From Mayamaea pseudoterrestris (taxonomy: Eukaryota): 64,000 nt of DNA. Shown here one piece after another: positions 1-64,000 of the stretch; the first letter of the stretch is position 1, and every line of letters begins with the position of its first letter. The stretch lies in NCBI GenBank assembly GCA_027923505.1, contig BROI01000007.1, positions 1,054,001 through 1,118,000 on the forward strand, given 5' to 3'. Under the pieces are notes generated by a model that saw nothing but the letters and a program-made list of their open reading frames with translations, was not told the DNA's origin and did no database searches. A program made the position numbers and the translations under genes.

Positions 1-3000
1 GATGCCTCCTGAGTCAACTCGAATCCCATGGCTTGCAACTTGGAGATGAACTGGGTAACCACATCAACTGACTTAGCGACAATGCAACCATCATCAACAA
101 AGCAACCAAAGAGGATGTTAACACCATAGAAGAGGCATTGGTCGAACTTGCTCTGCTTCAATCCCATACGAAGGAGAGCGTCTCGCAAATGCTCGAACCA
201 GAGGCGCGGGGCGACGGCAAGACCGTAGAGACTCTTCTTTAACTTTAAACACATGTTGGCGCCTTTGGAAGAGCGGAAGCCTCGAGGAAGATGAATCCAA
301 ACGGGATCTTGGAGCTCTGCTTGGACGAAGGCGCTGGCAAAGTCAACTGAGCAGGTGTGCCAATCAAGAGTCAAGGCAATGACGAGCAGCACTCGAATGG
401 TGCTCCAAGCAATAACAGGGGCAAACGTTTCAAACACGCCTTCTTGGAGATCACCACGGACGCAGTAGCGCCCTTTATACTTTTTAATGCTGCCATCAGG
501 CGTCCGCTTGCGGCGGAAGACCCAGGTTCCTGGCAAGATCCTTCCTTTCGCTTGAGACTTGGGCACCTCCTCCCATGTTCCCTTGGACTCCAAAACACGG
601 ATTTCTTCTGCTGCTGCCTCTAACCACTTGCTAACATGAGGTTGATCCGCCATTGCTTGCTCGTAGGAGAGGGTGTCGGGATCCGTTGCGGCAGCCTTGT
701 AAACAGCAGGCGCCGGGATACGGAGAGAAGCAAACAAACCAGCAAAATGCGCGGCATCGGCAAAGGATGGAGGCTTTAAAGGAGAAGCAGAGGCATTGAC
801 AGCGCTGTAGCCAAAGCCTTGGTCTCCTTCATAGCCATAGCGGGCAGAAGACCAGCCAACTTGGCGCGTCGAACGACGAGGCGCTGGGGCGTCCTGGGGT
901 TGGAGACCAGCTAGGCGTCCTGAGCGACGGAGAGCAGAAGGCAAAGGGGAAGAAGATGGAGCAGAAGCAGTGGTTTGTGTCTCCCTCGGAAATTCTGTTT
1001 GGGTAGGCAAGGGTGTAGGCTCCCTCGAGGATGGCTCGTCGGATGGCTCAAACGTAGGCAGCTCCCTCGTTTGAGACGGCTCGTCGATGGGATCGGCGCT
1101 GGGAGACGGGAAAGGAATCTCAGTTAAAGCAGGATTGGAGGCGTCTGGGTGCTCAAGAGGAGATGGAGAAGGAGCTTGAGCAGGCGCTTCAGTGGGTGGA
1201 GCGCTGGGACTGGCGTTGGCAACTGGATTATCGCTTGGTTTATCGGTGGGGCGTCTTGGAGAAGATGGCGGCACATCAACGGGAAGAGCTTGAGAAGGAT
1301 GATTAGCATCAAATGCAGCCCGAATGCGTTCTTGGCGACTAAAGGAGCTTGGAATAGGAGTAGAAGCAGCCTCCTCTTCTGCCTCGGCCTCACTGTCTGT
1401 CTCGTCACCGACAGGAATGTACTGGTAGGCAGAGTCACCAAAGAGCTGAAACCATTCCTTGGACCAAAGATCAGGGAGAGACGAAGGATCAGAAGAAACA
1501 GTGGCAAAGTAGTCATCAAAAACAACATGGTACTGCGGCGTTATACTTCCCGTTTGAGGATTGAGTACCAAAGGGACGGAGCTGGCATGCGAGTCGCTCA
1601 TACCAACAAAGATACACCGATGAGCTCGAGGTTGCCAACGAGGAAGCTTGTGTCCATCAGAAAGCTTCTTATCAAGCACATATACGGGGCATCCCCAAAC
1701 GTGCAGGTCGTGGAAGCGACTGTGGGGCCATCGAGTCCTTGTAAACAGATCCTGTGGACTGATCCCCGTGCTTGGATTCGGCATTTTGTTCCACAAGTAA
1801 ACGGCATGGCGGACTGCCATAGGCCAAAGACTAGGATCTGCAACCTCTGGCCAATGGATAGCGGCATGTAGGAGCATTGCTCGGGCAATGGACATGATCG
1901 TTCGAATGGCTCGCTCCGCTACCCCGTTCTGGCAATGGGAGCCCGTGCCGGCAAACTTGACGATTTGATGGAACGTGGTTAAATGCTTTGCGAATGCCTT
2001 TGAGGTAAAAGCAGTGCCATTGTCAGTCAAGTACTCTTGGGGAACGGCTCCACTTTCAAGACAGAACAACTCGAATGCCTCTTTTGCCTTGAGTGTCTCT
2101 TCGGTTGTTAAGTACCTCTGCAGTTCCACATGCACGTAGCCAGTGCAATGGTCAACAAAGATGCATCCGCCTCCAAACAGATCAGTCTCCTTTGATTTGC
2201 CTCGAGAGGAGAAGAGGCGTCCTTTGGTGGAGCAGATGAAATGGTCCACACTGATCCGCTGGCCGGGGAACAGATTGTCGCGCCTCAATGCATCCGCCTT
2301 GTCCTTAACCACGCTCTCCTTTAAACCTGGAGAAGAGCGAACCTTCTGCTTTGCATACTGACAAGCAGCACACATTGGAAAGGAGCGAAGGCGTACACAA
2401 GAGCTGTGAAGGCGGCGAGCTCCCTCGGTTGGCGCCAAGGCTCCGCTGCGCATTAGAAACTGGATCTTGCGGTAGTCAATGTGACCAAACTTGTAATGCC
2501 AACGGAGGATCTCCTTATCAGCCTCTGATAGATTCATATTAGTTGGAGCGACGGCTGGTGGACTTGGAGAAGGAGAAGGAGCACTTGGCGAACCACTGGG
2601 GCGATTGGAGGGACTGCTTGGAGAGCGACCCGACGAAGGACCAGATGAGTTGCCGTTTGACAAAGGAGAATCGGGACCACCTGGAGAGGATCCTGGACCT
2701 GAGCCAGGCGGAGGAGGCGGAGGACCTTGAGCATTATAGGCATTTGAGTCCATGCGGGTCTCGTAGGCATACCCAGTAGGCAAGTTTGTTTGGGGATCAA
2801 TGGGAATGCGAATGCTATTCAACGGAGGCGATCCATCAGGGCGTCTTGGTCCTTGAGTTCCACTTAAATAGAGAGCCTCACTGTCTTGGTGAACATACTC
2901 ATCCTTGTAGACCGACACCAAGCTGTTAGTGCTGAGCAGGCGGACTCGAGCGCTGGGGACGTAATAGGCGGGCACTTTGAGCGTTCGAAGCTGTCCTTTA

Positions 3001-4058
3001 GAATCCTCAAAGCTCCAAGCGACATGCCCGTATCCTTTGATAAAGGAGCCAGCAAAGAGACCGTTAAGCTCAATGCTCTCAGGGGCCTCGTGAATGGGGC
3101 CGACAAAGTCATCCTTGGAAAAGGACAAGGAGATGGAGGCGCCACTGTCCCAGATCACCTTCCTGTAGCGTTCCTTCTTGCCCCGGCGACGGCGAACATT
3201 TCCTGTAGCTTTGTGAAGGTTGCTAGTAGCTTCATGGTAAGCCTGAGCTCCCTCGCGAACCCAGTCAGGAAGGGCTTCTTGCTCTCCAGGGGAGAGGCTC
3301 GAGATGTAGGCATGCCCGTAGGTTTGCAGCAAGGCGAGCTGGCGAGCGGTGGGACCAACAGGACGGTGAGTGTAGGCGCCAGTGGATATCCCCTGAATGC
3401 GATCCGAAGGAAGGGTTTCCCGAATGTTGCTCCTAGTAGGCCTTGGTCTTGAAGAAGGACGAGGGCGACGAGTAGTTGAATGGACTCGGTGTCGCTGAGG
3501 TGTTGACTGCGACACGGGTTCAGGGGCTCGACGCTTGGTTTTGAACTGGGGCGAGCGATGGGCTCCACACTGGGGTTTGAACTGGGACGTCTTGGAGACC
3601 TGTCCTTTGATCTTGGCCTTGGCTGGCGGAGCAACACGGGCTCTACCTCCCTCGTCGGGAGACCTTGACAAGCGATTGCAGAAGCCTTCAACCTGGTGAG
3701 CAAAGTTGCGGGCGACCTTGGCGTCTCGAACTTGGCGAACGGAGGGTAGGTGAAGGTGGGCATCTTGGCGACGGAGACGAACGGGAAAGGAGCGATGGTA
3801 GCCAAGATCTGCAGCACTTGGAGCTGTAGAAGCAGGACGGAAGCAACGGCGAAGGCCTCGACGGAGACGGCGGGTAGCCTTGCGGCTCAACTTGGGTGGT
3901 CGACGCCCATGAGAAAACAAGGGACTGACGCGGATGATCAACAAACTCGACCTTGGGAGGAGGCGGAGGAGGGCAATCATAGCGAGGGCGAGGACGATCG
4001 CCAACGCAAGCCACATGAGCATGAGGAGATGGAGGAAACCAAGAATCCATATCCTGAA
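1..4058 (-). CDS. pol: Pol polyprotein (aspartic protease, integrase, reverse transcriptase), partial
   Basis: The frame opens after the TGA at 4059-4061 and appears to run to the window edge, which explains its absence from the ORF track. Motifs translated by hand: KVIWDSGAS (~3135-3160); WHYKFGH...CAAC integrase zinc finger; ISVDHF, YLTDNGTAF and QNGVAERAIRT (DDE core); RT motifs WVFRRKR, KGRYCVRGD, LKKSLYGL and CFVDDG (87-104). Confidence 0.93.
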
Positions 4059-5916
4059 TCAAGCTGAGGTTGGCTTGGCTGGCAGGCACATCAGAGCGGC
4101 GAGTGCGGTCATCGTTGTGGCTAGCCGTTCCATGGCTAGTCGTCCACTTGTTGCAATGCGCACACCACGAGTAACTCTTGCCCTTGTACATGCGGCGCTC
4201 AGGTTGTCCAGCTGCAGGAGGAGCAAAGTTCCAAGAGCGCTCATCCCTAGGTGAGTTGCTGTTGCTCTTGTTGTTGCCTTTGTTGCCGCTCCTGTTGCCG
4301 CCTCGGCCAGCGCCATTGGTGCGGCGCCCAGCGTTATTACCAGTGTTGCGCCCATTGCCTCGGCCCGTGCCTTGCTTGCGACCACGTTGATTGCCATGTT
4401 GCCCCGAGTCTCCATCCTTCCTTGGAGAGGGACAATTGCGAGAATAATGACCAGCTTCTCCACAGTTAAAACACTTTTTATCAGAAGCAACTGCAGTCGA
4501 GGCGTCTCCATTCAGCTCAACCACATTGGCTCCATAGCCTCGAGGTGGCGCTCGCGAGTCCCTGGGTTGGCGCGCAGGCTGCCATTTGTTGCTGTAATAA
4601 AGCTCCATGTAAATGCCGTCAGCCTTCATGCAAACGTCTTGCAACGTGAGCTCCTTCTTGGCAAAGTAGGCAGCTTGCTTGGCAGTCGATAGATGAGCGG
4701 TTGCATCGAGCGCCGCCTCCAACTTGTTTTCAAGCTTGCCAAGGCGACTTGCAAAACGCTCTCTGCCAGGGTTGTCAACTGATACCTCGCCTCCAGCTAG
4801 AAGCAGATTGCGGACGTGCTTTAGTGTGGTATCAGGATGATAGGCGTCGGCATTCTCCAAGTCGAGCGCCAGCTCCAGTGCCTCCTTATTCAACTTGACG
4901 ATATCCTGCCCCGCGTACTTGCTCGGGTGCAACGCCTCGATTTCCTTCTTCCTTGCCTCGCAAAACGCTCGATCATGCTTGCGATGCATGTGAGCAAGGC
5001 GAACGAGAGTAACAACAGCAGGCTCTTTCTTGTGCTTTGAGGTCTGCAAGGCGAGGCGGCGTTTCAAATCATCCGAAATGGAATTGCGAATACACATGGC
5101 AAGATCAGCATCGTTTCCCTTGTCAAACATGTCGTAGAGCTTGCGCTGAGGCTCAATGGCTTTGTTAATGCTCTTCAACGTGTGAAACTGACTGGCGAAG
5201 AGTGCGACATTGATCATTTTTGTGGGATCGGTAGGCTTTGGAGCATAGAGAAGCGTGTCCATGCCAACTGACTCAGCCTTGATGGTAAGCTCGGTACCCC
5301 ACGTGGTAAAGTTAACGTTTGGACTAAGCTTTGGTGTGATTCCTTGTTGTCTATAGGCAAGGGCGGCGATAGACTTTTCATTTTGAGAGCGAATGAGATG
5401 GCCATTGATGTTGCTATTATCCGGCGGCACATCAATGCCAGACCAATCAGCTTTTGGCTTGCCTCCAACTTGTGGAGCGTAAGTGCTAGCTCCAGTACGG
5501 ACAATGGTGCCCATTATAGGCTTTTGAGGCTTGTAGATCGGCTTGGACTTGGACTTTGACTTGGACTTGAGCTTGGCACTTGAGACAGGAGGCTCAACGA
5601 CGGGCGGAGCTTCCTCGGGATCAGAGTCAGAGTCGTCGCTTGGAATAGAGGCATCAGAGACAAAGCTTTTGGAGCTGTCGTTGTTGTTGGTGTTGCTTGA
5701 TGAGGAAACGGAGGTATCGTCCTCCTCGGACGGTGGATTTGTGCCAGGAGACGACGGTGGATCTGTCGTCCTTCCTTCTTCACTTGGCGACGGAGCATCG
5801 CCAACAGGATCTTGGTTGGCGACTGGAGCTGGATTAGCGACTGGCTCTTGTTCGCTAACAGGAGGATTGGCGACTGGCTCTTGTTCGCCAACTGGCTTGG
5901 GATCCTTGACGGCCAT
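3688..5916 (-). CDS. gag: Gag-like protein of the copia element
   Basis: ORF 3688-5991 with first ATG at 5916. Contains zinc knuckle CFNCGEAGHYSRNC, a G/N/R-rich tract, and a second C/H motif WCAHCNKWTTSH. Confidence 0.88.
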   Translation of the reverse strand: MAVKDPKPVGEQEPVANPPVSEQEPVANPAPVANQDPVGDAPSPSEEGRTTDPPSSPGTNPPSEEDDTSVSSSSNTNNNDSSKSFVSDASIPSDDSDSDPEEAPPVVEPPVSSAKLKSKSKSKSKPIYKPQKPIMGTIVRTGASTYAPQVGGKPKADWSGIDVPPDNSNINGHLIRSQNEKSIAALAYRQQGITPKLSPNVNFTTWGTELTIKAESVGMDTLLYAPKPTDPTKMINVALFASQFHTLKSINKAIEPQRKLYDMFDKGNDADLAMCIRNSISDDLKRRLALQTSKHKKEPAVVTLVRLAHMHRKHDRAFCEARKKEIEALHPSKYAGQDIVKLNKEALELALDLENADAYHPDTTLKHVRNLLLAGGEVSVDNPGRERFASRLGKLENKLEAALDATAHLSTAKQAAYFAKKELTLQDVCMKADGIYMELYYSNKWQPARQPRDSRAPPRGYGANVVELNGDASTAVASDKKCFNCGEAGHYSRNCPSPRKDGDSGQHGNQRGRKQGTGRGNGRNTGNNAGRRTNGAGRGGNRSGNKGNNKSNSNSPRDERSWNFAPPAAGQPERRMYKGKSYSWCAHCNKWTTSHGTASHNDDRTRRSDVPASQANLSLIQDMDSWFPPSPHAHVACVGDRPRPRYDCPPPPPPKVEFVDHPRQSLVFSWASTTQVEPQGYPPSPSRPSPLLPSCFYSSKCCRSWLPSLLSRSSPSPRCPPSPTLRSPSSRRQGRPQLCSPG

Positions 5917-26863: not shown

Positions 26864-28062
26864 CTAAAACATTAATCCAGCCAGTCCCAAGGCGGCATCC
26901 GTGACACTACCAAGCACTCGTCGACCACTTGATCCGCTGTCACCACCTTCATCAGAAGGCAAGACACCTTCCAATGCCGTGGGACAGAGGCGTTGAATAG
27001 TACGTCCATTGAGTGGCTGCAGAGGCCGGCCCGTTGATCCAGACGGAGCGGCAACGCTTGCCAACTCGCAAGTGCTTGGATCAGTATACTCCAGAACCAA
27101 GCTCGTCAAGCGGACATATTCGCGGACGGAAATGCTCAGTGGCGTATCAATCACATTCCAAAGCACAATTTCCGAGCATGGTGGCGTCGTCAAGGAACCG
27201 TTGTATTGATACATGGTGGCCCCTTCTGGCACCAAGTCGTAAAAGTTGAAGGCAGCCAGATGGCGCTGGGCTTTTAGAAGTGCTCTTTGGCGATGTTCGT
27301 CGGACTGTGTCGTTGCTCCAACGCAAGCTGCGGCAGTAGCATTGGCTGCCGCCTCCCATCCTGTCAACAGGTCCCCAAAAATAGGTGAATCGGAAGGATT
27401 AGTCGGTACGACAAACAAGCCGAGGACGGAGAATCGATCACCGTTTTCCTCGGCGTGCACCAAATGCAAATCAGCTCCAAAGTAGGCTCCATCGATAGCA
27501 TGGTCGCTTCCAGTATGCATGTGAAACTGAGAAGCGATGAATTTGTTGGCTTGGTTTGGGACCCTCATACTGGGTGGTTCGCACTGGTCGCTTAGATAGG
27601 TGACTTGAATGGCATGGCCCGATAGGGTGTAGTTCATGTCATTGCTAGTACATGTTCCAGCCTATTGCATTAGAGAGTAAAGAAAGTTTGTAAGTCGAAC
27701 GGCTCATAAACCAAGCTTCATAATGGACAGCACCAAAAGGCTCGAGAGTCAAGAGTCAAGAGCAACTTACGGAGAATTTGTAGTCGACAAAGTCGTCACA
27801 ACCACTCGTTGGAATATCAATGCCTGACTGCGCTGATCCTCCACATTGATTGTCTTCGATCTGTGCATGAAGGAGATGGTATTTAGTTCTGAGACATTGT
27901 TGATATGACACAATGATGTACATGTCAAACAAACAAGATACTCACATCAATATCGGCCCAATTGTCAGGACCATACTCATGGGAAGGATCGTAGCTGTAA
28001 AGATGCTCCTCCGCGAGAGCATAGAGAGGAAGGAGGGCACCGAGTGTAAATAGCAGCTTCAT
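26864..28062 (-). CDS. Secreted alpha-carbonic anhydrase, copy 1 (3 exons)
   Basis: Signal peptide MKLLFTLGALLPLYALA; motifs YGPDNW, QFHMH, ADLHLVH (three Zn His), GSLTTPPCSE and RPLQPLNGR; hydrophobic C-terminal tail. Confidence 0.93.
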
Positions 28063-29725: not shown

Positions 29726-30895
29726 TTAGAAAAGCATACCAGCAATGCCGAGGGTGGCGCTCTTGACGCTACTCAACATGCGGCCGGATCCGCTTTCGCC
29801 TTCGTCACCCTCTGGCAAAGTTCCTTCCAAGGCAGTCGGGCAGACGCGGTTGATCGGGCGGCCGTTGATGGGTTGGAGCGGGCGACCAGTGAAACCAGAT
29901 GGCGCCGCAACACTGGCAGGTTGGCAGGTGGCAGGGTCAACATACTCGAGCACAAGCTGGGTGAGCCGAATGTACTCGCGAACTGAAATACTGACAGGAA
30001 CATCAACAACGTTCCAGAAGACAACCTCCGAGCATGGTGGAGTGGTGAGTGAGCCATCATATTGGTACATGGTAGCACCCTCGGGCACCAAACTGTAGTA
30101 GTCAAATTCGGCAAGGTCCCGGCTGGCCTGGCGAAGAGCACGGGTGCGGTCGCCGACGGATTGAGTGGTAGCATCGGCGCATGTGGCAGCAGTGGCGTTC
30201 GCGACAGCCTCCCATCCACTTAGCAAGTTGCCGAAGATTGGATTGTCCGAGGGGTTGGTGGGCTCCAAAAACAAACCGAGCACGGCGAAGCGGTCTCCTC
30301 CAACCTCCTGGTGGACCAAATGGACATCGGCACCAAAGTAAACTCCGTCAATGGCATGGTCACTGCCAGTGTGCATGTGGAACTGGAGCGCCTCGAAAGG
30401 GTTGGGCTGGCCGGGGACGGTCATGCGAGGGAGCTCACATTCGTCGGAAAGGTAGGTTGCCTGGATGGCGTGTCCCGAAAGCGTGAAGTTCATGTTGTCG
30501 GTGGTACAAGTTCCAGCCTAAAGCCAACGAAAAGGAAAATGTTTGAGACGCTGATGCATTGTTAAAATAGGGCACATTTACCCGACCTAACCCACATGTG
30601 GCCAAACGTACCGAAAAGGTGTAGTCCGCAAAATCATCGCAACCACTGGTGGGAACATCAATACCAGACTGAGCCGAGCCTCCGCACTCGTTGTTTGGAA
30701 GCTGTGGAAGTGCCGATAGAAATGGAATGGCGAGTTAGAAGGCTGTCAATTCGAAACTCAAGATATCAAAGATCGCTATTTGAAACATACATCAACTTGC
30801 GCCCAGTTCTCGGGACTGTACTCGTTAGATGGGTCGTAGCTGTAAAGGTCCGAGACGACATAGGCGGGGAGGAGGGCGGCGAGAACGATCTTCAT
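29726..30895 (-). CDS. Secreted alpha-carbonic anhydrase, copy 2 (tandem paralog, 3 exons)
   Basis: Signal peptide MKIVLAALLPAYVVS; motifs YSPENW, QFHMH, ADVHLVH and GSLTTPPCSE. Same intron layout as copy 1. Confidence 0.93.
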
Positions 30896-56144: not shown

Positions 56145-56808
56145 ATGGGTCTTCTATCCATACTCAGAAAAGTGAGCTAAAGACGGAACGTGAAAGCATT
56201 TGTGTGTGTTTGTTCAAGACTGACTTGCTGATCTCACTCACGCCTTGCATCGACCATTTTCCTGTCTACAGATTAAGCAAAAGGAGAAGGAAGTTCGGAT
56301 TCTCATTCTCGGTCTAGATAATGCTGGCAAAACCACCATTTTGCGTCGCATTTGCGGTCAGTCGATTGATACGATTGAGCCTACTCTTGGCTTTAACATT
56401 CAAAGTCTGGAACACAAGAACTACCAGCTAAACCTATGGGATGTAGGTGGTCAAAAGTCCATTCGAGCCTACTGGCGAAACTACTTTGAGCAGACGGATG
56501 GTTTGATTTGGGTGGTGGACAGTGCGGACCGAGTTCGACTGGAGCTTTGTCGCCAGGAACTCATGGAGTTGCTGCAACAGGAGCGACTAGCTGGAGCATC
56601 ATTATTAATATATGCCAACAAGCAAGATGTCAGCGGAGCACTTGCATTGGAAGAGATTGCACAGGTTCTAGAGCTAACGACGAACAAGCAATTTGATAAT
56701 CGACATTGGAACATTTTGGCTTGCAGCGCCGTCACAGGAAATGGACTTCTCGAAGGCATGGATTGGATTGTCAGTGACATTGCAGATAGAATATTCATGT
56801 TAGCATAG
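56145..56808 (+). CDS. ARL2: ADP-ribosylation factor-like protein 2
   Basis: [41 protein letters not shown] and ERLAGASLL. Intron ~56172-56271. Confidence 0.95.
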
Positions 56809-57376: not shown

Positions 57377-58714
57377 ATGCAAACGAATAACAAGTGGATG
57401 GATGATTGCATGAATCGGGTGCTTGATGAGCGCCGAAGGAAAGGCACTCTACGAAGCCTTTCCGCATGCTCATCCGACCCGCAGCCTCATGATGGGGCTG
57501 AAGCTGCGACGAACCAGATTGACTTTTCCAGCAATGACTACCTTGGACTAGCTCGCGAATCGGAGCAAACCGCAATGGTTGCGTCTGCCTTGACACAAGC
57601 AGATGCAATGCCGCTGGGCGCCACTGGCTCTCGCTTGCTTTCGGGCGATTCATTGGCTCACCAACAACTGGAAGACTACCTTGCCATGGTCCATTGTCAA
57701 CCGGCAGCCCTCCTTTGCAACTCTGGCTACGATGCCAATTTGTCAGTCGTTTCTAGTCTAACATGTGACTGCATTATTTACGACGAATACATTCACAACT
57801 CGCTGCATATGGGCCTTCGACTATGGAAGGCAAAGACGAGTAGTCAAGGCAAACATGACAACAACAACAAGACTTGCGCTAGTTTTTTGCACAACGACTT
57901 GAATGATTTACAAAAGCAGCTGCAATCATACTCGAATCATACCGTTGTCGTCGTAGTGGAAAGCGTCTATAGCATGGACGGTGACATCGCGCCGCTGCGC
58001 CAAATGCTAAATCTTTGCCAACAATTTCATGCCATGCTGGTGGTCGACGAAGCGCATGGCTTGGGTTTCTGTGGAGGTCCGCCAGCGTCTACAATCAAGA
58101 ATAACTATACTGGAACTGGCGTCTTAGCAAGAGAAAATGTACAAAATCACCCCAACTTGCATTGCTCAATTCATACCTTTGGCAAGGCAGCCGGATGCCA
58201 CGGTGCAGTCGTATGTGGATCCAAACTACTGAAGCAATATCTCGTCAATTACGCATATCCTTTTATATACTCGACCGCCTTGCCTCCGCATTCGCTCGTC
58301 GTTATCAAGTGTGCCTACGAAACCATGACAGGGCCGCGAGGAGATGCACTGCGCGACAAACTAAACCAGCTCATTACATTGTTTCGAAAGAATCTCACGG
58401 CGCATTTGCGCGCAATTTACTGTCCCTCCATCAAGCTACTTGCGTCAAACACGCCAATCCAAGCGCTCATGGTGCCCGGCAATGAACAGTGTACACAATT
58501 CTGTCAGCAACTCTATGCTGCATCAACCAAGCGTATTGTATTGTATCCCATCAAGACACCGACAGTTCCAGCTGGTCAGGAGAGAGTTCGCATCATTATT
58601 CATGCGCATAATACAGTTGAACAAGTGCTTATGCTAGTTGATCTCATCAAGACGACACTCAACGACATGGCCCTATCGCGTCGCCATGACATGTTACTCC
58701 AATCTAAATTATAG
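57377..58714 (+). CDS. bioF: 8-amino-7-oxononanoate synthase (biotin synthesis)
   Basis: Motifs DFSSNDYLGL, GATGSRLLSG, SGYDAN, ESVYSMDGD, VDEAH and TFGKA (PLP lysine). Confidence 0.93.
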   Translation: MQTNNKWMDDCMNRVLDERRRKGTLRSLSACSSDPQPHDGAEAATNQIDFSSNDYLGLARESEQTAMVASALTQADAMPLGATGSRLLSGDSLAHQQLEDYLAMVHCQPAALLCNSGYDANLSVVSSLTCDCIIYDEYIHNSLHMGLRLWKAKTSSQGKHDNNNKTCASFLHNDLNDLQKQLQSYSNHTVVVVVESVYSMDGDIAPLRQMLNLCQQFHAMLVVDEAHGLGFCGGPPASTIKNNYTGTGVLARENVQNHPNLHCSIHTFGKAAGCHGAVVCGSKLLKQYLVNYAYPFIYSTALPPHSLVVIKCAYETMTGPRGDALRDKLNQLITLFRKNLTAHLRAIYCPSIKLLASNTPIQALMVPGNEQCTQFCQQLYAASTKRIVLYPIKTPTVPAGQERVRIIIHAHNTVEQVLMLVDLIKTTLNDMALSRRHDMLLQSKL

Positions 58715-59291
58715 GTTGATTAAGACGCATAATATGCCAGTCTCGTTACGTCAAGCCGTTTATAGTATGAAACATGTTTCATACTCTCGGTCTCTCAACG
58801 TGACACCAAGCCGGTTATTGTACATGTTCCATACTTTCGGCCTCTCAACAGCGATCGTCTATATATATAGTCACAACCAAATCTCGAAAAAAAACGGTTG
58901 CAATCATGCGACTGATCTTGATAGTGTAGTCTCTACAAACAACCTTTCGTCATGTATTTTTAATACCGCTACGACTTAATTTGAATTCGATAGCCAATCA
59001 GAAACTGGTCATTTTCCGTGAATTGCAAATGACTCTTCTGCACGACACGACGATGCCCTTCGATCCTGTAAAATGCTTGCGACACCCATCAGGGAGACCA
59101 AGCTGGATCCGATTGGAACATTGCACTGCCATAAGGACCTATCGGAAGGTGCTGCCTGTCGTAGGAGCAAAGCAAGAGTTGTCTGCAGCAGCGAGTGACG
59201 TCAAAAGTGCGCCAGCCATTGAGACAGCAATCAACGTCGACACGGCGGCATCCAGAAAGCTCTAGCAACAACAAGGTTATTCACGTGAATT

Positions 59292-62200
59292 ATGTCGGAA
59301 CCCCCAAACGAAGAGCCGAGCGGCATCAAGGCTCGACTCTTGGCCTATCAGCAAGCTGCCAAGACTAAACGAGCCTTGAAGAAACAACGGAGCAGTGAAA
59401 ACTTGACGGAGATGATGAATGCATCGACTGGACAATTGGCAAGGAATTTGGAGGAGGCTGCCAAGGCGCGAAAGGAACACAATAAGCGACCATCGCTAGT
59501 CGGTAAATTGGATTCGTCAAAAATGGCCAAATTTCATGATTCGGGCGCTGGCTTGAATGATTCTGGCAATGTCAACTCGCATTCAAATCTTGTCATTGAC
59601 GAGGAGCGCGAGCAGCGTGAAGCATCTGAAAAATTAAACAAGATGCTTGGGGCAGTCGATGGTGGAAATAGCAGCAGCAGCAATCTTGATCACGCCAGTC
59701 GACACCAGCTGCCCGAATTTAGTACGGCACGGACTCGGTACTTGAGCGCCGTTCAAAAGCTTGTGCCGGCGCCACTGCCGGATCAAAAGGGAGACGAAAA
59801 GAAAAAGGCGATTGAACGAGAAAAGGTAAAGAAACAAGCCTATGGATCGCTGAAAATGGCATGGGATCAGTTTGAAGTCGTTGCCAAGGATCGTCCTCGC
59901 GAGCCGACGGAAGCCGAGCTTAGAATCAAGGCAGAAATGGCTCAACTGGAAGATCGCATTGACAAGGAGTGGGTACAATATGCTGAAAAGGTTGTGAAAC
60001 GAGCCGTTGCTGATGGAGATACCGATGAGGCCGAAATTGGGCAGTGGAAGAATGAAGTTGTGAACATGCAGAAGGAGTCGGAAGTCAGACGAAAACAGAA
60101 AATTAAGCAACAAAAAATCGAGGAAGAAAAGTATTGGAAAGACGAGACAGAACGGCTTCGAGCTGAGCTTAAGGACGAGAGTGAACTGGGCAGTGATGAA
60201 GAGTGGGAATCGGATACAGAAGCGGTTCAAGACGTGAAGGACGAATCTGAACGATCGCAGAAGGAAGTTGCTCTATTGGAGACGCGCACCATTTCACCTC
60301 TCGTAATGTCGCCAAAAGCGATTGTGACGTCGCCATCCAAGGTGTCTCACGTTGCTGAAAAAAGTTCTCCGAAACACGCTCGTGCGTCATCAAGCATTGC
60401 CGAGAAAGCCAAAATGTTTGCTTCCCCAAAGCAGTTCGGCAAGCCGCCCGTTAAACCACCGCTGAGCGTGTCGGAAAGAACGCAGAAGCTTTTTCCTCAG
60501 AAAGCACCACTTATTGAGCCACCAGCGGAGCAAGCACCGATGATTGACCCCCGTACAGAAAAGGCCACCACCGTTCCGATGAAAAGGTTTACCAGGAAGG
60601 TCACCCCGGTCAAAAAGGAATGCCTTGCAATTGACAAAAAGCTTGAAAAGCTGATATCGTTAATGAGTGAAGTCGATGGCTCTAAGACAATACCGAGAGA
60701 CGATGGCGAAGTACGGCAGCGCTATATTGAATGCGTCTATAAACTGATTCCATCAGAAATCCCCACTAACTTGAATGCTTCGGCCAAGCTTGTGCGCCTT
60801 GAGGCTGAGTCCAAAAAGAAATTACTTTACAAGCGCCTCCAGACAGCTTGGGACTCGTATGAACTCACAACAATGTGCCGGCAAACCCGGAATAAGGTGG
60901 CGGATGGCAAGATAAGTCGTGCCGAGGACATTGTTGATTCTGCCTGGATTGGATTCGCCAAGTCGGTAGTCGCTGCCGCTGCCACGGAAACTGTTAGTGA
61001 TAATGTTTACAATTACGAGATTGATAAGTGGAAGGCAGAAGCTTTACGTCTCAAAGCGCTCTGCGTAAAGCGCAAACGCCGCAAAGGGCGAAAGGTCACA
61101 AAAGCTGAGGCTGAAGCGGCAACGGCGGCTTCACGCGGCGATCTTATGGACAACCTGGATGAGTTGGTATATAGGAACGTTCATGCTATGGCGCTCCCTC
61201 CCTATAAGAGACTGACGGTTGATGAGCTGGACGTTTATGAACAACACATTTTTGAGGCGGTCCAGAGTGCGAAGCCGGAAACTATTCGCAAACAAGACTC
61301 GTCGTCCAATGGCGACGAGGATCCAAAGTCAAGGATCATTGTTGATGCCAGAAAGAAAGCAAGTAGCAGGGCTGTTGCTAAGCTCAGTACGCTCTTGTCG
61401 GGATGCGATGGTAAAGCGAAGAAGACCGTCACTTATACTGAAGCGAAAAGTCGATATATTGCAGCAGTCCGTAAGCTTGCGCCTTCCGATATTCCCGCGA
61501 GTACGTCGGGACCAGCGAGAGATAAGTATCTCCGTGAAGAAGCCAAGAAGATGAAGAAATACGAGAAATTGAAGTCAACATGGGATGTGTATGAGTCAAC
61601 CTTGGATCCAAAGCAGATACCAGTGAAAGAGGAGAAGAGAGTTGACACTGTCGAAGCTCTAGTTGACAGCGCCTGGGCAGGTTTTGCAAAGACGCTTCTG
61701 CGAGAGGCTGACGGAATAAGCGAAGATTTTGACGGCGAGGTGGACAAATGGAGGACCGAAGCTATGAGGTTGAAATCTCAAGCTGTAGCTCGGAAGCGTC
61801 GAAAGAAACGCTTCGTTTCCAAAAACGAGGCCGCGATAGCAGCGGCCGCTGCAGTTGGAATGGTTTTAGACGACGATGATTTAGACGAGCACGTTTACCG
61901 CCATTTGAGTGCGTCACGCCCACAAGATGTCGATGACGATCAATATGAAGGGATGATATTTGACAAAATTGCTCAGGGTCGACCTGGCATGGGCAATCCT
62001 TGGGATAATCTTTCCGATTCAGAGGAGGAAATTGTTATTGGCGAGGCCGTCATTGAGCGCCCAGAGCTGCTTGTAGGGACCGCTTTTGATGACAGCATTA
62101 GCAGAGACACATATTTTGACGAACATCAGTTTGGTTCGATTAATGGATTGCGAGTTGGCTATGGAAATCCTTGGGATGACTTATCCGACAACGAAGGAAC

Positions 62201-64000
62201 TATGCCTGACGATGTCGCAACATTGGAAGAGTCAACGAAAGGGAAGCTCGGTAGGATGGTATCTGAGGTGCTTGGGGAAGAACTGGCTCCAACGTCCTAT
62301 GCTGATGCACGCTCGCTATATGTTGCTGCCGTAAAACGTCTTGCACCTTCGGACATTCAACATGGTCTGAAAGGAGACGCCAAGAAAAATGCCCTACTGC
62401 AAGAAGCTCGAAAGAAAGAAGAGTACGCCGTTTTGAAACGAACTTTTGATGCATATGAAATGGTTGCGCGTGATAAACCAATGAATGACAACGTTGGAGA
62501 AGCAGAAGTTGCGAGAATTGAAGACCTTGCAGATACGAGCTGGGTAGGCTTTGCCAAGACGGTAATAAAACAAGCGGAAGCTGATGGCGATGCTAGCGAA
62601 GAATATCAAGATGAGATTGATAAATGGAAAAGCGAAGCATTGCGAATGAAAGCGCTTGCCCTTGCTCGCAAACGCCGCAAGAAGCGCACAGTCACAAAAC
62701 AGGAAGCTGCAATCGCCACAGCTGCTGCTGCTGGTTTCGACGATGGGGAGGATGACTACGATGAGCGAGTTTTTCGTTCGGTGGCCAATTGTCGTCCTGG
62801 TATGGCAAGCCCATGGGATGATTTAAGTGATAACGAGGCTAACCTTAATTCTCTGGAACGTGGCAACAATGCTGAAGAGGAGGAAGAACCAGTATATGGC
62901 GCAATAAATAGTTATCGCGTTGGAGGTCACAATCCCTGGGACGATTTATCAGATAATGAGGAAGAATCAGCGAAACCATCTGCGCCGCACGAAAAATGCT
63001 CTGATAAGCTCGTAAGTATTCTTGATCAAGTTAATGGCGAAAAAGCTATCACGAGAGATTATCATTCTTTGCGGAGTCGCTATATTCAAGCAGTTCATCA
63101 GTTGGCTCCGTCAAGAATTCCCGCGGGTTCCAGCTTTGCAGGCGCGAAGAATATGCTGTTGACGGAAGCCAAGAAGAAGGAGCAATACGAAACGCTGAAG
63201 AAGCAGTGGGACATTTACGAAATCACTACCAAAGATAAATTAGTAGGCGACATGGACGGCGAGAGAAAGGTCAACAGAGCTGAGGATCTCATCGACACTT
63301 GCTGGGTGGGCTTTGCGAAAACTGTTGTGGCCTGTGCGCAAGGAAGCCAAATGGATGCGGATTCCGAATACAAAGATGAAATTGACAAGTGGAAATCTGA
63401 AGCAAGGCGATTGAAAGCCCAAGCATTAAAAAGGAAACGACGCAAAGGTCGGAAATTCACAAAGAGAGAATCTGAGGAAGCACTTTCAGCCGAAAAAGCG
63501 CAAGACAATAGCAACTATGACGAGGAAATATACGTTCAAGTATGCGCATCAGCGGCCGACAAAAGCTTCGCCAACAATGTCGAGTTTGATCAATATGAGG
63601 ATCAAGTGTATGCGTCGTTAAGTTCGCTTCGACCGGGCATGGGCAACTTCTGGGATGATATTTCTGATTCTGAAGAGGATCCACAATCAAAGAAACTCGC
63701 AGACTTAAAAATAAAAGAAGAAACAAAGTCAACGGAGGCTCTCTCGGCCGTTATATCAACTGTATGTGGCGGTGACAGTGTTGTGAAGAGCTACAGTTCC
63801 GCCCGATCACTTTACGTAAAAGCGTTGCAAAAGCTAGCCCCAGCAAAGCTGCCGAAAGCATCGGTAGGCATTGCAAAAAAGAACTTTCTGATAGAAGAGT
63901 CGAGGAAGAAAGATCTGTATGACAAGCTTACGGAGGCGTTCGATCGATATGAAATTAGTCTTGTCGAGCGACCACGAGATATTGAAGCTGAAAGGAAGTT
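59292..64000 (+). CDS. Very large uncharacterised repeat protein (>1569 aa, partial, intronless within the window)
   Basis: Frame read by hand from ATG 59292 (MSEPPNEEPSGIKARLLAYQQAA) to the window edge with no stop. Six internal repeats are conserved at protein level with synonymous divergence. Confidence 0.92.
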   Translation, partial: MSEPPNEEPSGIKARLLAYQQAAKTKRALKKQRSSENLTEMMNASTGQLARNLEEAAKARKEHNKRPSLVGKLDSSKMAKFHDSGAGLNDSGNVNSHSNLVIDEEREQREASEKLNKMLGAVDGGNSSSSNLDHASRHQLPEFSTARTRYLSAVQKLVPAPLPDQKGDEKKKAIEREKVKKQAYGSLKMAWDQFEVVAKDRPREPTEAELRIKAEMAQLEDRIDKEWVQYAEKVVKRAVADGDTDEAEIGQWKNEVVNMQKESEVRRKQKIKQQKIEEEKYWKDETERLRAELKDESELGSDEEWESDTEAVQDVKDESERSQKEVALLETRTISPLVMSPKAIVTSPSKVSHVAEKSSPKHARASSSIAEKAKMFASPKQFGKPPVKPPLSVSERTQKLFPQKAPLIEPPAEQAPMIDPRTEKATTVPMKRFTRKVTPVKKECLAIDKKLEKLISLMSEVDGSKTIPRDDGEVRQRYIECVYKLIPSEIPTNLNASAKLVRLEAESKKKLLYKRLQTAWDSYELTTMCRQTRNKVADGKISRAEDIVDSAWIGFAKSVVAAAATETVSDNVYNYEIDKWKAEALRLKALCVKRKRRKGRKVTKAEAEAATAASRGDLMDNLDELVYRNVHAMALPPYKRLTVDELDVYEQHIFEAVQSAKPETIRKQDSSSNGDEDPKSRIIVDARKKASSRAVAKLSTLLSGCDGKAKKTVTYTEAKSRYIAAVRKLAPSDIPASTSGPARDKYLREEAKKMKKYEKLKSTWDVYESTLDPKQIPVKEEKRVDTVEALVDSAWAGFAKTLLREADGISEDFDGEVDKWRTEAMRLKSQAVARKRRKKRFVSKNEAAIAAAAAVGMVLDDDDLDEHVYRHLSASRPQDVDDDQYEGMIFDKIAQGRPGMGNPWDNLSDSEEEIVIGEAVIERPELLVGTAFDDSISRDTYFDEHQFGSINGLRVGYGNPWDDLSDNEGTMPDDVATLEESTKGKLGRMVSEVLGEELAPTSYADARSLYVAAVKRLAPSDIQHGLKGDAKKNALLQEARKKEEYAVLKRTFDAYEMVARDKPMNDNVGEAEVARIEDLADTSWVGFAKTVIKQAEADGDASEEYQDEIDKWKSEALRMKALALARKRRKKRTVTKQEAAIATAAAAGFDDGEDDYDERVFRSVANCRPGMASPWDDLSDNEANLNSLERGNNAEEEEEPVYGAINSYRVGGHNPWDDLSDNEEESAKPSAPHEKCSDKLVSILDQVNGEKAITRDYHSLRSRYIQAVHQLAPSRIPAGSSFAGAKNMLLTEAKKKEQYETLKKQWDIYEITTKDKLVGDMDGERKVNRAEDLIDTCWVGFAKTVVACAQGSQMDADSEYKDEIDKWKSEARRLKAQALKRKRRKGRKFTKRESEEALSAEKAQDNSNYDEEIYVQVCASAADKSFANNVEFDQYEDQVYASLSSLRPGMGNFWDDISDSEEDPQSKKLADLKIKEETKSTEALSAVISTVCGGDSVVKSYSSARSLYVKALQKLAPAKLPKASVGIAKKNFLIEESRKKDLYDKLTEAFDRYEISLVERPRDIEAERK

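Follow-up and report, generated by a model that had tools for sequence, protein, structure and literature searches.

The last part of a 64,000-nucleotide stretch of Mayamaea pseudoterrestris DNA (contig BROI01000007.1 of assembly GCA_027923505.1, positions 1,054,001 to 1,118,000; the whole stretch is referred to as the window) is occupied by a giant open reading frame (ORF) that begins at 59292 and is still open where the window ends. What does such a frame encode, and what could its product do? The frame is a genuine protein-coding gene of a eukaryotic nuclear genome, and its product carries nine copies of an unnamed helical module followed by a C-terminal DUF1349 domain. This description of the gene, its architecture and its family membership is held with high confidence.

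The region from 59292 to 63998 on the plus strand forms one open frame of 1569 codons without a stop, which extends past the 3′ edge of the window and is uninterrupted by introns in this part of the gene.

59292..63998, plus strand: part of the coding sequence (CDS) within the window, covering codons 1-1569 out of 2671.

Two codons 5′ of the ATG at 59292 there is an in-frame stop, a TGA at 59286-59288. Because of this stop, and because the N-terminal motif of the protein family is found at amino acids (aa) 10-26, the ATG is taken to be correctly placed. An earlier sequence-only reading of the locus had described the frame as missing from the ORF track. It is absent from the default ORF list, as such lists drop frames that run off the source without a stop inside the window. 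The cause is thus mechanical, and the frame is seen once open-ended frames are allowed. The full-length product, designated P0002, has 2671 aa and is identical (100%) to the window translation over the queried residues 440-1470. Two antisense ORFs of 198 aa (59634-60230, minus strand) and 104 aa (61433-61747, minus strand) lie within the giant ORF and are probably shadow frames of the coding strand.

When 200-aa segments were compared by BLAST with the whole window translation, six copies of a unit of approximately 170 aa were recovered, at aa ~106-270, 449-600, 694-840, 984-1132, 1236-1381 and 1475-1569+. The copies share 24-49% protein identity, with expectation (E) values of 1e-5 to 3e-43. 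Profile searches with hmmsearch set the module boundaries as follows.

59595..60134, plus strand: helical module copy 1, aa 102-281, of the “first-copy” type (hmmsearch envelope 1e-60; grouping in the tree).
60612..61124, plus strand: helical module copy 2, aa 441-611, with the basic tract RKRRKGR at 61071-61091.
61344..61844, plus strand: helical module copy 3, aa 685-851, with the basic tract RKRRKKR at 61791-61811.
62208..62720, plus strand: helical module copy 4, aa 973-1143, with a basic tract at 62667-62687.
62970..63485, plus strand: helical module copy 5, aa 1227-1398, with a basic tract at 63432-63452; this copy was modelled with AlphaFold2 (AF2).
63702..63998, plus strand: helical module copy 6, aa 1471-1641, interrupted at aa 1569 by the end of the window (self-BLAST and hmmsearch).

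Each copy is anchored by an R.(R/L)Y..AV motif, at aa 147, 475, 719, 1007, 1261 and 1505 (nucleotides 59730, 60714, 61446, 62310, 63072 and 63804). The sequence-only reading had placed these anchors within a few bases of the measured positions. The motifs W.GFAK, E(I/V)DKW(K/R).EA and RKRRK(G/K)R are all present in each of copies 2-5, and copy 1 carries the weaker variants WVQYAE, EIGQWKNEV and RRKQKIK. Copy 6 is truncated at aa 1569 and its remainder is visible in P0002. The motifs therefore lie where that reading had put them, including its remarks on a weaker first copy and an edge-cut last one. Its count of at least six copies holds for the window, and the full protein carries nine.

The DNA of the copies has diverged. 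Nucleotide identity between copies is 42-52%, the proportion of synonymous differences (pS) is 0.69-0.87 and thus saturated, and the proportion of non-synonymous differences (pN) is 0.37-0.53. Tandem Repeats Finder reported nothing over 59000-64000. The saturated pS, the lower pN and the lack of a detectable DNA repeat indicate that the copies are old and have been maintained by selection at the protein level. Together with the confident fold model described below, these values bear out the proposal of an old, folded domain under selection.

The fold was predicted for copy 5 from an alignment of 32 rows, made up of five window copies and 27 relatives out of 38 relative segments. Eleven segments were omitted (P0015, P0016, P0017, P0024, P0026, P0027, P0028, P0033, P0034, P0037 and P0043): several belong to the group of P0025, which was retained; P0017, P0034 and P0043 are short or partial; P0016 has a long insert; and P0033 is near the retained P0023. 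The AF2 model has a mean predicted local distance difference test (pLDDT) value of 90.5 and a predicted template modelling (pTM) score of 0.83. It shows five helices, at residues 6-22, 31-44, 56-86, 95-125 and 132-171, as expected from the earlier description of the repeat as a helical domain.

Searches for a named relative of this bundle were made by several routes. Pfam gave no family for the modelled copy and one sub-threshold, chance-level match for the whole window part of the protein; over the 32 members nothing consistent was found, the commonest family occurring in 5 of the 32 with a best E of 0.013. A profile of the 32 members against all PDB sequences had a best E of 0.2, with spectrin alpha at E 0.9-1. 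Foldseek of the bundle model against the PDB returned no matches at E≤0.001 (best E 0.63), and a search of the ESM Atlas with one module reached a best score of 0.76, below the level of a lead. Superposition on 48,161 chains with VIA-align gave as its best match the Sso2 syntaxin bundle (Z 8.7 over 123 residues, root mean square deviation (rmsd) 3.3, identity 8%), followed by MukF, designed bundles and the STAT1 coiled-coil domain (Z 8.1); spectrin repeats 15-16 (3fb2_B) scored Z 6.7 with 93 residues aligned. By the tool's own guidance, a Z under ~13 for helical bundles may reflect a common arrangement only. The Pfam and Foldseek searches, to which the sequence-only reading had looked for a characterised relative of the repeat, thus gave no confident match, and its statement that the domain matches none known agrees with all four of the Pfam, PDB profile, Foldseek and VIA-align comparisons. 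On the predicted model, the unit is a genuine, folded bundle of helices for which no named relative can be recognised.

Three classes of known helical domain were considered individually. TPR, ARM, HEAT and ankyrin repeats have no Pfam match in the window protein or among the 25 families listed, out of 34, for the 32 members, and they are rejected because their units have 24-47 aa, as opposed to helices of 14-40 residues within one 170-aa unit. The spectrin repeat (~106 aa, three helices, continuous) has no Pfam match at E≤1, and the present unit has ~170 aa, five helices and disordered linkers. For the syntaxin/t-SNARE class there is the generic bundle overlap with Sso2, and no SNARE or syntaxin Pfam match in the window protein or P0002.

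Beyond the window the character of the protein changes. P0002 consists, in order, of nine copies of the unit, a low-complexity tail rich in K and E (about aa 2383-2494) and a C-terminal DUF1349 domain. The nine anchors are at aa 147, 475, 719, 1007, 1261, 1505, 1804, 2078 and 2238, and the nine module envelopes have E values of 4e-32 to 9e-80 (hmmsearch). The DUF1349 family, PF07081, is matched at aa 2495-2669 with E 1.4e-32 (113.2 bits against a cut-off of 32.4), from profile position 1 to 177 of 179. This domain also matches the beta-sandwich of yeast YJL217W/Ree1 (3o12_A; E 8e-12 over 174 residues) and 3mep_A (E 1.3e-4). A match to the concanavalin A-like family GH43_C2 is weak here (E 0.056) and reaches E 1.5e-5 in relatives (25.2 bits against a cut-off of 22.7). 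The tail has a sub-threshold match to the Pfam family SR-25 (E 4.4e-4, 20.4 bits against a cut-off of 40). Since a bundle-profile match and a C-terminal PF07081 are found in the same protein, P0002 belongs with the proteins that combine the N-terminal motif, the five-helix bundle and DUF1349. Judged by its C-terminal sequence, it is not an orphan but a member of a DUF1349/Ree1-like family. A complex prediction between the copy 5 bundle and the DUF1349 domain gave a score of 0.00 and a mark of 0.34, with controls not run and the supplied alignments unused, and counts neither for nor against contact between the two.

The likeness to yeast Ree1 and to bacterial stand-alone DUF1349 proteins (3o12, 3mep) lies in the C-terminal 177 aa, which match PF07081 end to end. 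The difference is one of context: the solved DUF1349 chains have 221 and 198 aa and bacterial proteins of 179-206 aa make up the nearest Atlas clusters, whereas the window protein has about 2490 aa before the domain. Yeast Ree1 has a reported effect on the level of enolase and a link to the Snf1 pathway. A 2011 paper (PMC3045335) describes YJL217W as a cytosolic beta-sandwich protein, and a 2019 paper (PMC6375214) places REE1 among the genes regulated by Mac1p. In a preprint (10.64898/2026.10.27.762293), DUF1349 is given a lectin/glycosidase fold that is concanavalin A-like, and is noted as being fused to GH43 in bacterial proteins. In the published literature on DUF1349, on “regulation of enolase protein” in diatoms and on the linker motifs, supplements not being covered, no description of this protein architecture was found.

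The size of the family was established by scoring a profile of the six window copies exhaustively against 1.84 billion representative proteins (hmmsearch). It recovered 42 proteins with E≤0.001; the stricter limits of 1e-10 and 1e-30 left 23 and 7 of them, respectively. Word-index searches, by comparison, returned 1, 3 and 19 proteins, and family size is taken from the profile search. Most relatives have a single module near the N-terminus (about aa 110-350; local hmmsearch). P0005 and P0006 carry two each, P0004 three and P0003 five or six, and the nine of the window protein are the highest number seen. According to Pfam, 16 of the 41 relatives have a C-terminal PF07081 and 23 show no Pfam family. 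The remaining two, P0033 and P0022, have other domains in place of DUF1349: in P0033 the module at aa 1-180 precedes ARM repeats at aa 400-840, and in P0022 the module at aa 22-199 precedes a fragment from the start of an adenylate/guanylate cyclase domain at aa 292-343. The N-terminal module would thus seem to be portable. Eleven further proteins bearing DUF1349 came from a second search, all 11 with one module and the N-terminal motif. The ESM Atlas, searched with the relative P0011, returned only bacterial stand-alone DUF1349 clusters (score 0.89, proteins of 179-206 aa).

In their sources the relatives are named [quoted passage not shown], “hypothetical” or “uncharacterized”. The sole taxon label among the 42 proteins is Amphiprora, a raphid pennate diatom, attached to the transcriptome protein P0040. 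P0071 is also from a marine eukaryote transcriptome collection, so that two relatives come from such collections. The suggestion that the domain may be diatom-specific has this one label behind it, which covers just 1 of the 42 proteins.

From these comparisons, the repeat is an N-terminal module that has been amplified here and that occurs a single time in most members of a small family. The architecture of the family is an N-terminal motif, one or two acidic aromatic linear motifs, a five-helix bundle ending in a basic helix, a long charged spacer and a C-terminal beta-sandwich of DUF1349 (Ree1/YJL217W-like, concanavalin-A-type).

The following features of the window part lie outside the modules.

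59319..59369, plus strand: N-terminal family motif SGIKARLLAYQQAAKTK, aa 10-26, found in N-terminal alignments of relatives.
61995..62189, plus strand: acidic disordered linker with two R(P/V)G..NPWD(N/D)LSD motifs, at 61995-62018 and 62166-62189; net charge -22.
62808..62954, plus strand: acidic disordered linker with two motifs, SPWDDLSD at 62808-62831 and NPWDDLSD at 62931-62954; AF2 pLDDT 42-68.
63645..63668, plus strand: linker motif NFWDDISD.

Across the family the N-terminal motif follows the pattern G[IV][KR].R[LM]..YQ[EQ]..KK. Upstream of the bundle, the relatives have this motif, a VGKL motif and one or two copies of RPG[ML].RG.SF[DE][DE], which often occurs twice (e.g., P0010, P0011, P0021 and P0037). 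Read from its sequence, this last motif would have the form of an R-x-x-S site for a basophilic kinase. In the window protein it is replaced by NPWD[DE]LSD, followed by acidic Ser clusters. Single-copy members such as P0011 (719 aa) thus share the N-terminal motif, the bundle and the C-terminal DUF1349, and differ in having one module instead of nine and the RPG motif instead of the Trp motif upstream.

Over the full protein the linkers contain R(P/V/A)G..(N/S)(P/F)WD[DEN][LI]SD nine times, with the Trp at aa 904, 961, 1175, 1216, 1454, 1699, 1758, 1972 and 2010. Elsewhere the motif occurs only once in P0004 and once in its cluster-mate P0044. Since the Trp motif aligns with the RPG motif of the relatives, the unit that was duplicated is the whole N-terminal module and not the bundle alone. 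W-D-D-L-S-D may resemble Atg8-interacting motifs, the W-acidic motif of kinesin light chain and adaptor-ear motifs, and no claim is based on these resemblances.

The linkers between the modules have 70-130 aa and are predicted to be disordered, and those after copy 2 have a net charge of -5 to -25. In an AF2 model of a linker together with copy 5 (255 aa, 24-row alignment), the bundle stays confident and the 85-residue linker has a mean pLDDT per 10-residue block of 42-68 and contains a single short helix. Seven of the nine modules close with a basic heptad (RKRRKGR, RKRRKKR or similar), at aa 594, 834, 1126, 1381, 1624, 1923 and 2196. Ahead of DUF1349, the tail passes from an acidic block into runs of K at aa 2443-2458. 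The chain is thus predicted to consist of folded beads on a string with alternating blocks of charge. The image of beads on a string, used in the sequence-only reading, fits the predicted disorder of the linkers.

The history of the copies was reconstructed in a maximum-likelihood tree of 58 module instances, in which envelopes of <110 profile positions and the duplicate P0044 were left out and the midpoint root serves for drawing only. Window copy 1 falls in a clade (support 100/98) that also contains P0007, P0008 and the first copy of both P0003 and P0004. Window copies 2-9 cluster with the internal copies of P0003 and P0004 (99/91). Within this group, P0004 copy 2 is the partner of window copy 6 (98/79) and P0004 copy 3 that of window copy 7 (97/82), so part of the expansion predates the split from the P0004 lineage. 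Copies 2-5 of P0003 form their own clade (99/92), and the two copies of P0005 (99/97) and of P0006 (99/93) pair within their proteins. Tandem duplication of the module has therefore occurred more than twice among these proteins. Long branches make the placement of copy 9 and of both P0019 copies unsure.

The best overall explanation is that the gene encodes an amplified-module protein acting as a multivalent beads-on-a-string adaptor or scaffold. This is put forward tentatively, at slightly below an even chance, a judgement that mainly reflects the mechanism. The mechanism on its own is a shade more doubtful. It would operate through nine equivalent bundles, each with the same conserved surface, kept apart by disordered acidic linkers bearing nine W-D-[DEN]-L/I-S-D motifs. 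An RKRRK-type basic tract closing each bundle would turn the chain into a block polyampholyte, and the C-terminal beta-sandwich would provide a second, different binding specificity. The bundle may be a targeting or assembly module, as it stands before other C-terminal domains in two relatives, and copying it nine-fold would raise avidity or cross-linking capacity.

Several points weigh against this explanation. The mechanism is drawn from the architecture alone. DUF1349 is not seen in 25 of the 41 relatives; truncation is the likely reason, several of those checked being on short contigs (for example, 862 and 879 nucleotides). The Trp motif is confined to the window protein and P0004/P0044, and any role of the Trp version would therefore be narrow. 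The RKRRK tracts sit in a confidently predicted helix and may be part of the fold, not free signals for binding or import. The 32-row alignment behind the AF2 model contains five paralogous copies from the same protein.

The alternating charge admits another explanation, in which the product would be a nuclear or nucleolar charge-block protein. The basic tracts and the K-rich tail would act as sites for import or nucleic-acid binding, and the acidic Ser-rich linkers (SD.EE) would be regulated by kinases, as in nucleolar phosphoproteins with alternating acidic and basic stretches. The seven basic heptads and the K-runs of the tail, the alternation of basic and acidic blocks along the chain and the weak, sub-threshold SR-25 match of the tail are all in keeping with it, as is an N-terminus without a hydrophobic leader by eye, no predictor having been run. 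It is nonetheless unlikely. The tracts fall within a predicted helix, the equivalent stretch in relatives is a mixed K/R/E helix and not a clean import-type signal, and Pfam found no nucleic-acid-binding domain in the window protein or P0002.

If the weight is instead placed on the C-terminus, the protein could be directed at carbohydrate, with a concanavalin-A-type domain that binds or acts on a glycan and nine modules as a long spacer or stalk. DUF1349 is confidently present, the GH43_C2 match strengthens from the window protein to its relatives, and the fold and the bacterial GH43 fusions noted in the preprint (10.64898/2026.10.27.762293) point the same way. The N-terminus, however, has no signal peptide or membrane anchor by eye, the yeast protein is cytosolic according to the 2011 paper (PMC3045335), and catalytic residues are undefined for the family. 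A passive spacer, moreover, would not need Trp and Tyr positions conserved across distant relatives. This explanation is rated below the charge-block protein, as rather improbable.

Less probable again is a diverged form of a known helical repeat, such as a spectrin-like three-helix or a syntaxin-Habc-like bundle, in a scaffold of the cytoskeleton or of membrane traffic. With spectrin-type and other tandem-bundle scaffolds the window protein shares a very long chain and tandem antiparallel bundles with long helices (here of 31, 31 and 40 residues), and with the Habc or closed four-helix bundle of Sso2 its best superposition. These likenesses, with that to STAT1 and the spectrin alpha match in the PDB profile search, are what would support a common origin. 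All the Z values nevertheless fall in the generic range of the tool for helical bundles, the best Foldseek E is 0.63 and no Pfam repeat family is matched at E≤1. The likeness to spectrin comes with no sequence or profile match, and the 70-130-aa disordered acidic linkers join the modules where spectrin-type repeats would have continuous helices. That to Sso2 comes with 8% identity, and no membrane anchor is seen in the window protein.

A non-functional locus, whether a chance open frame, a pseudogene or debris of a repeat element, is so strongly disfavoured as to be hardly credible: that no listed run is recorded as RNA is, by the tool's statement, no evidence either way, and 1569 codons without a stop, a pN well under saturated pS between copies, relatives with the same architecture and two domains with confident predictions or matches all speak for a gene.

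Public sequencing reads also cover the locus. Four runs of a single study, their kind unrecorded, contain 92-97% of the sampled words of 58800-64000, and their contigs cover the ORF collinearly and without joints. The runs X1, X2 and X4 have one spanning contig each, with 2-4 differences from the window over ~4.9-5.5 kb, and X3 covers the ORF with three contigs (2, 1 and 0 differences). One X2 contig of 8172 nucleotides extends 3274 nucleotides beyond the window end. This cover agrees with an uninterrupted exon and with the full CDS length but leaves transcription unsettled. In X2, X3 and X4 the ORF-covering contig starts at 59103, 59098 and 59109, respectively, and the bins 58676-59009 are without cover.

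In a neighbouring gene, an X4 contig joins 56171 to 56272, skipping exactly 100 bases with GT..AG ends, and X2 and X3 contigs skip 103 bases (56171-56275) with three other letters between. The interval 56171-56272 is a likely intron of that gene, with an allelic variant. The X4 joint would fit complementary DNA. Neither it nor the contig starts given above are counted as proof of transcription or of a transcript start, all of them coming from contigs of one study with runs of unrecorded kind. Two X1 contigs of 431 nucleotides (depth 19.7 and 21.6) both lie over 58138-58568, with 20 and 14 differences from the window, and from 58539 onward X1 has a single contig of 8657 nucleotides (depth 35.9, 4 differences). 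These look like two diverged haplotypes upstream and one shared sequence over the giant gene, depth being a weak measure.

The window is plainly eukaryotic nuclear DNA, with a copia-type retroelement, a mitochondrial carrier, UFD1, citrate synthase and two alpha carbonic anhydrases among others. At the left edge (3-5916, minus strand), two overlapping long ORFs with RVT_2, a retroviral SH3-like domain, gag-pre-integrase and a zinc knuckle represent the copia-type retrotransposon. The adjacent ORFs at 26864-27637 and 29726-30493 (minus strand; 257 and 255 aa) match carbonic anhydrase of the eukaryotic (alpha) type over the same profile span, and seem to be a pair of tandem genes.

Algal genomes commonly contain unnamed domains confined to one lineage, and the gain from this one is modest, as no function follows yet. 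An unnamed domain has been defined, with a confident predicted fold and a family context, which makes an orphan giant ORF tractable. For DUF1349/Ree1, whose function is poorly defined, a new eukaryotic architecture is added. The single module is suited to expression, structure solution and pull-downs, and the natural variants with 1, 2, 3, 5 and 9 copies permit a direct test of the effect of copy number. A bolder version of the scaffold proposal sees in the bundle a new domain for assembly or targeting, restricted to one lineage (probably the diatoms), which after nine-fold amplification with acidic Trp motifs and basic tracts makes a self-associating, charge-patterned multivalent scaffold. 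This is a long shot, about as improbable as the charge-block protein. If it were true, the bundle could precede effectors as varied as DUF1349, ARM repeats and a cyclase, and the scaffold could give order to a lattice or cellular body that only these algae possess.

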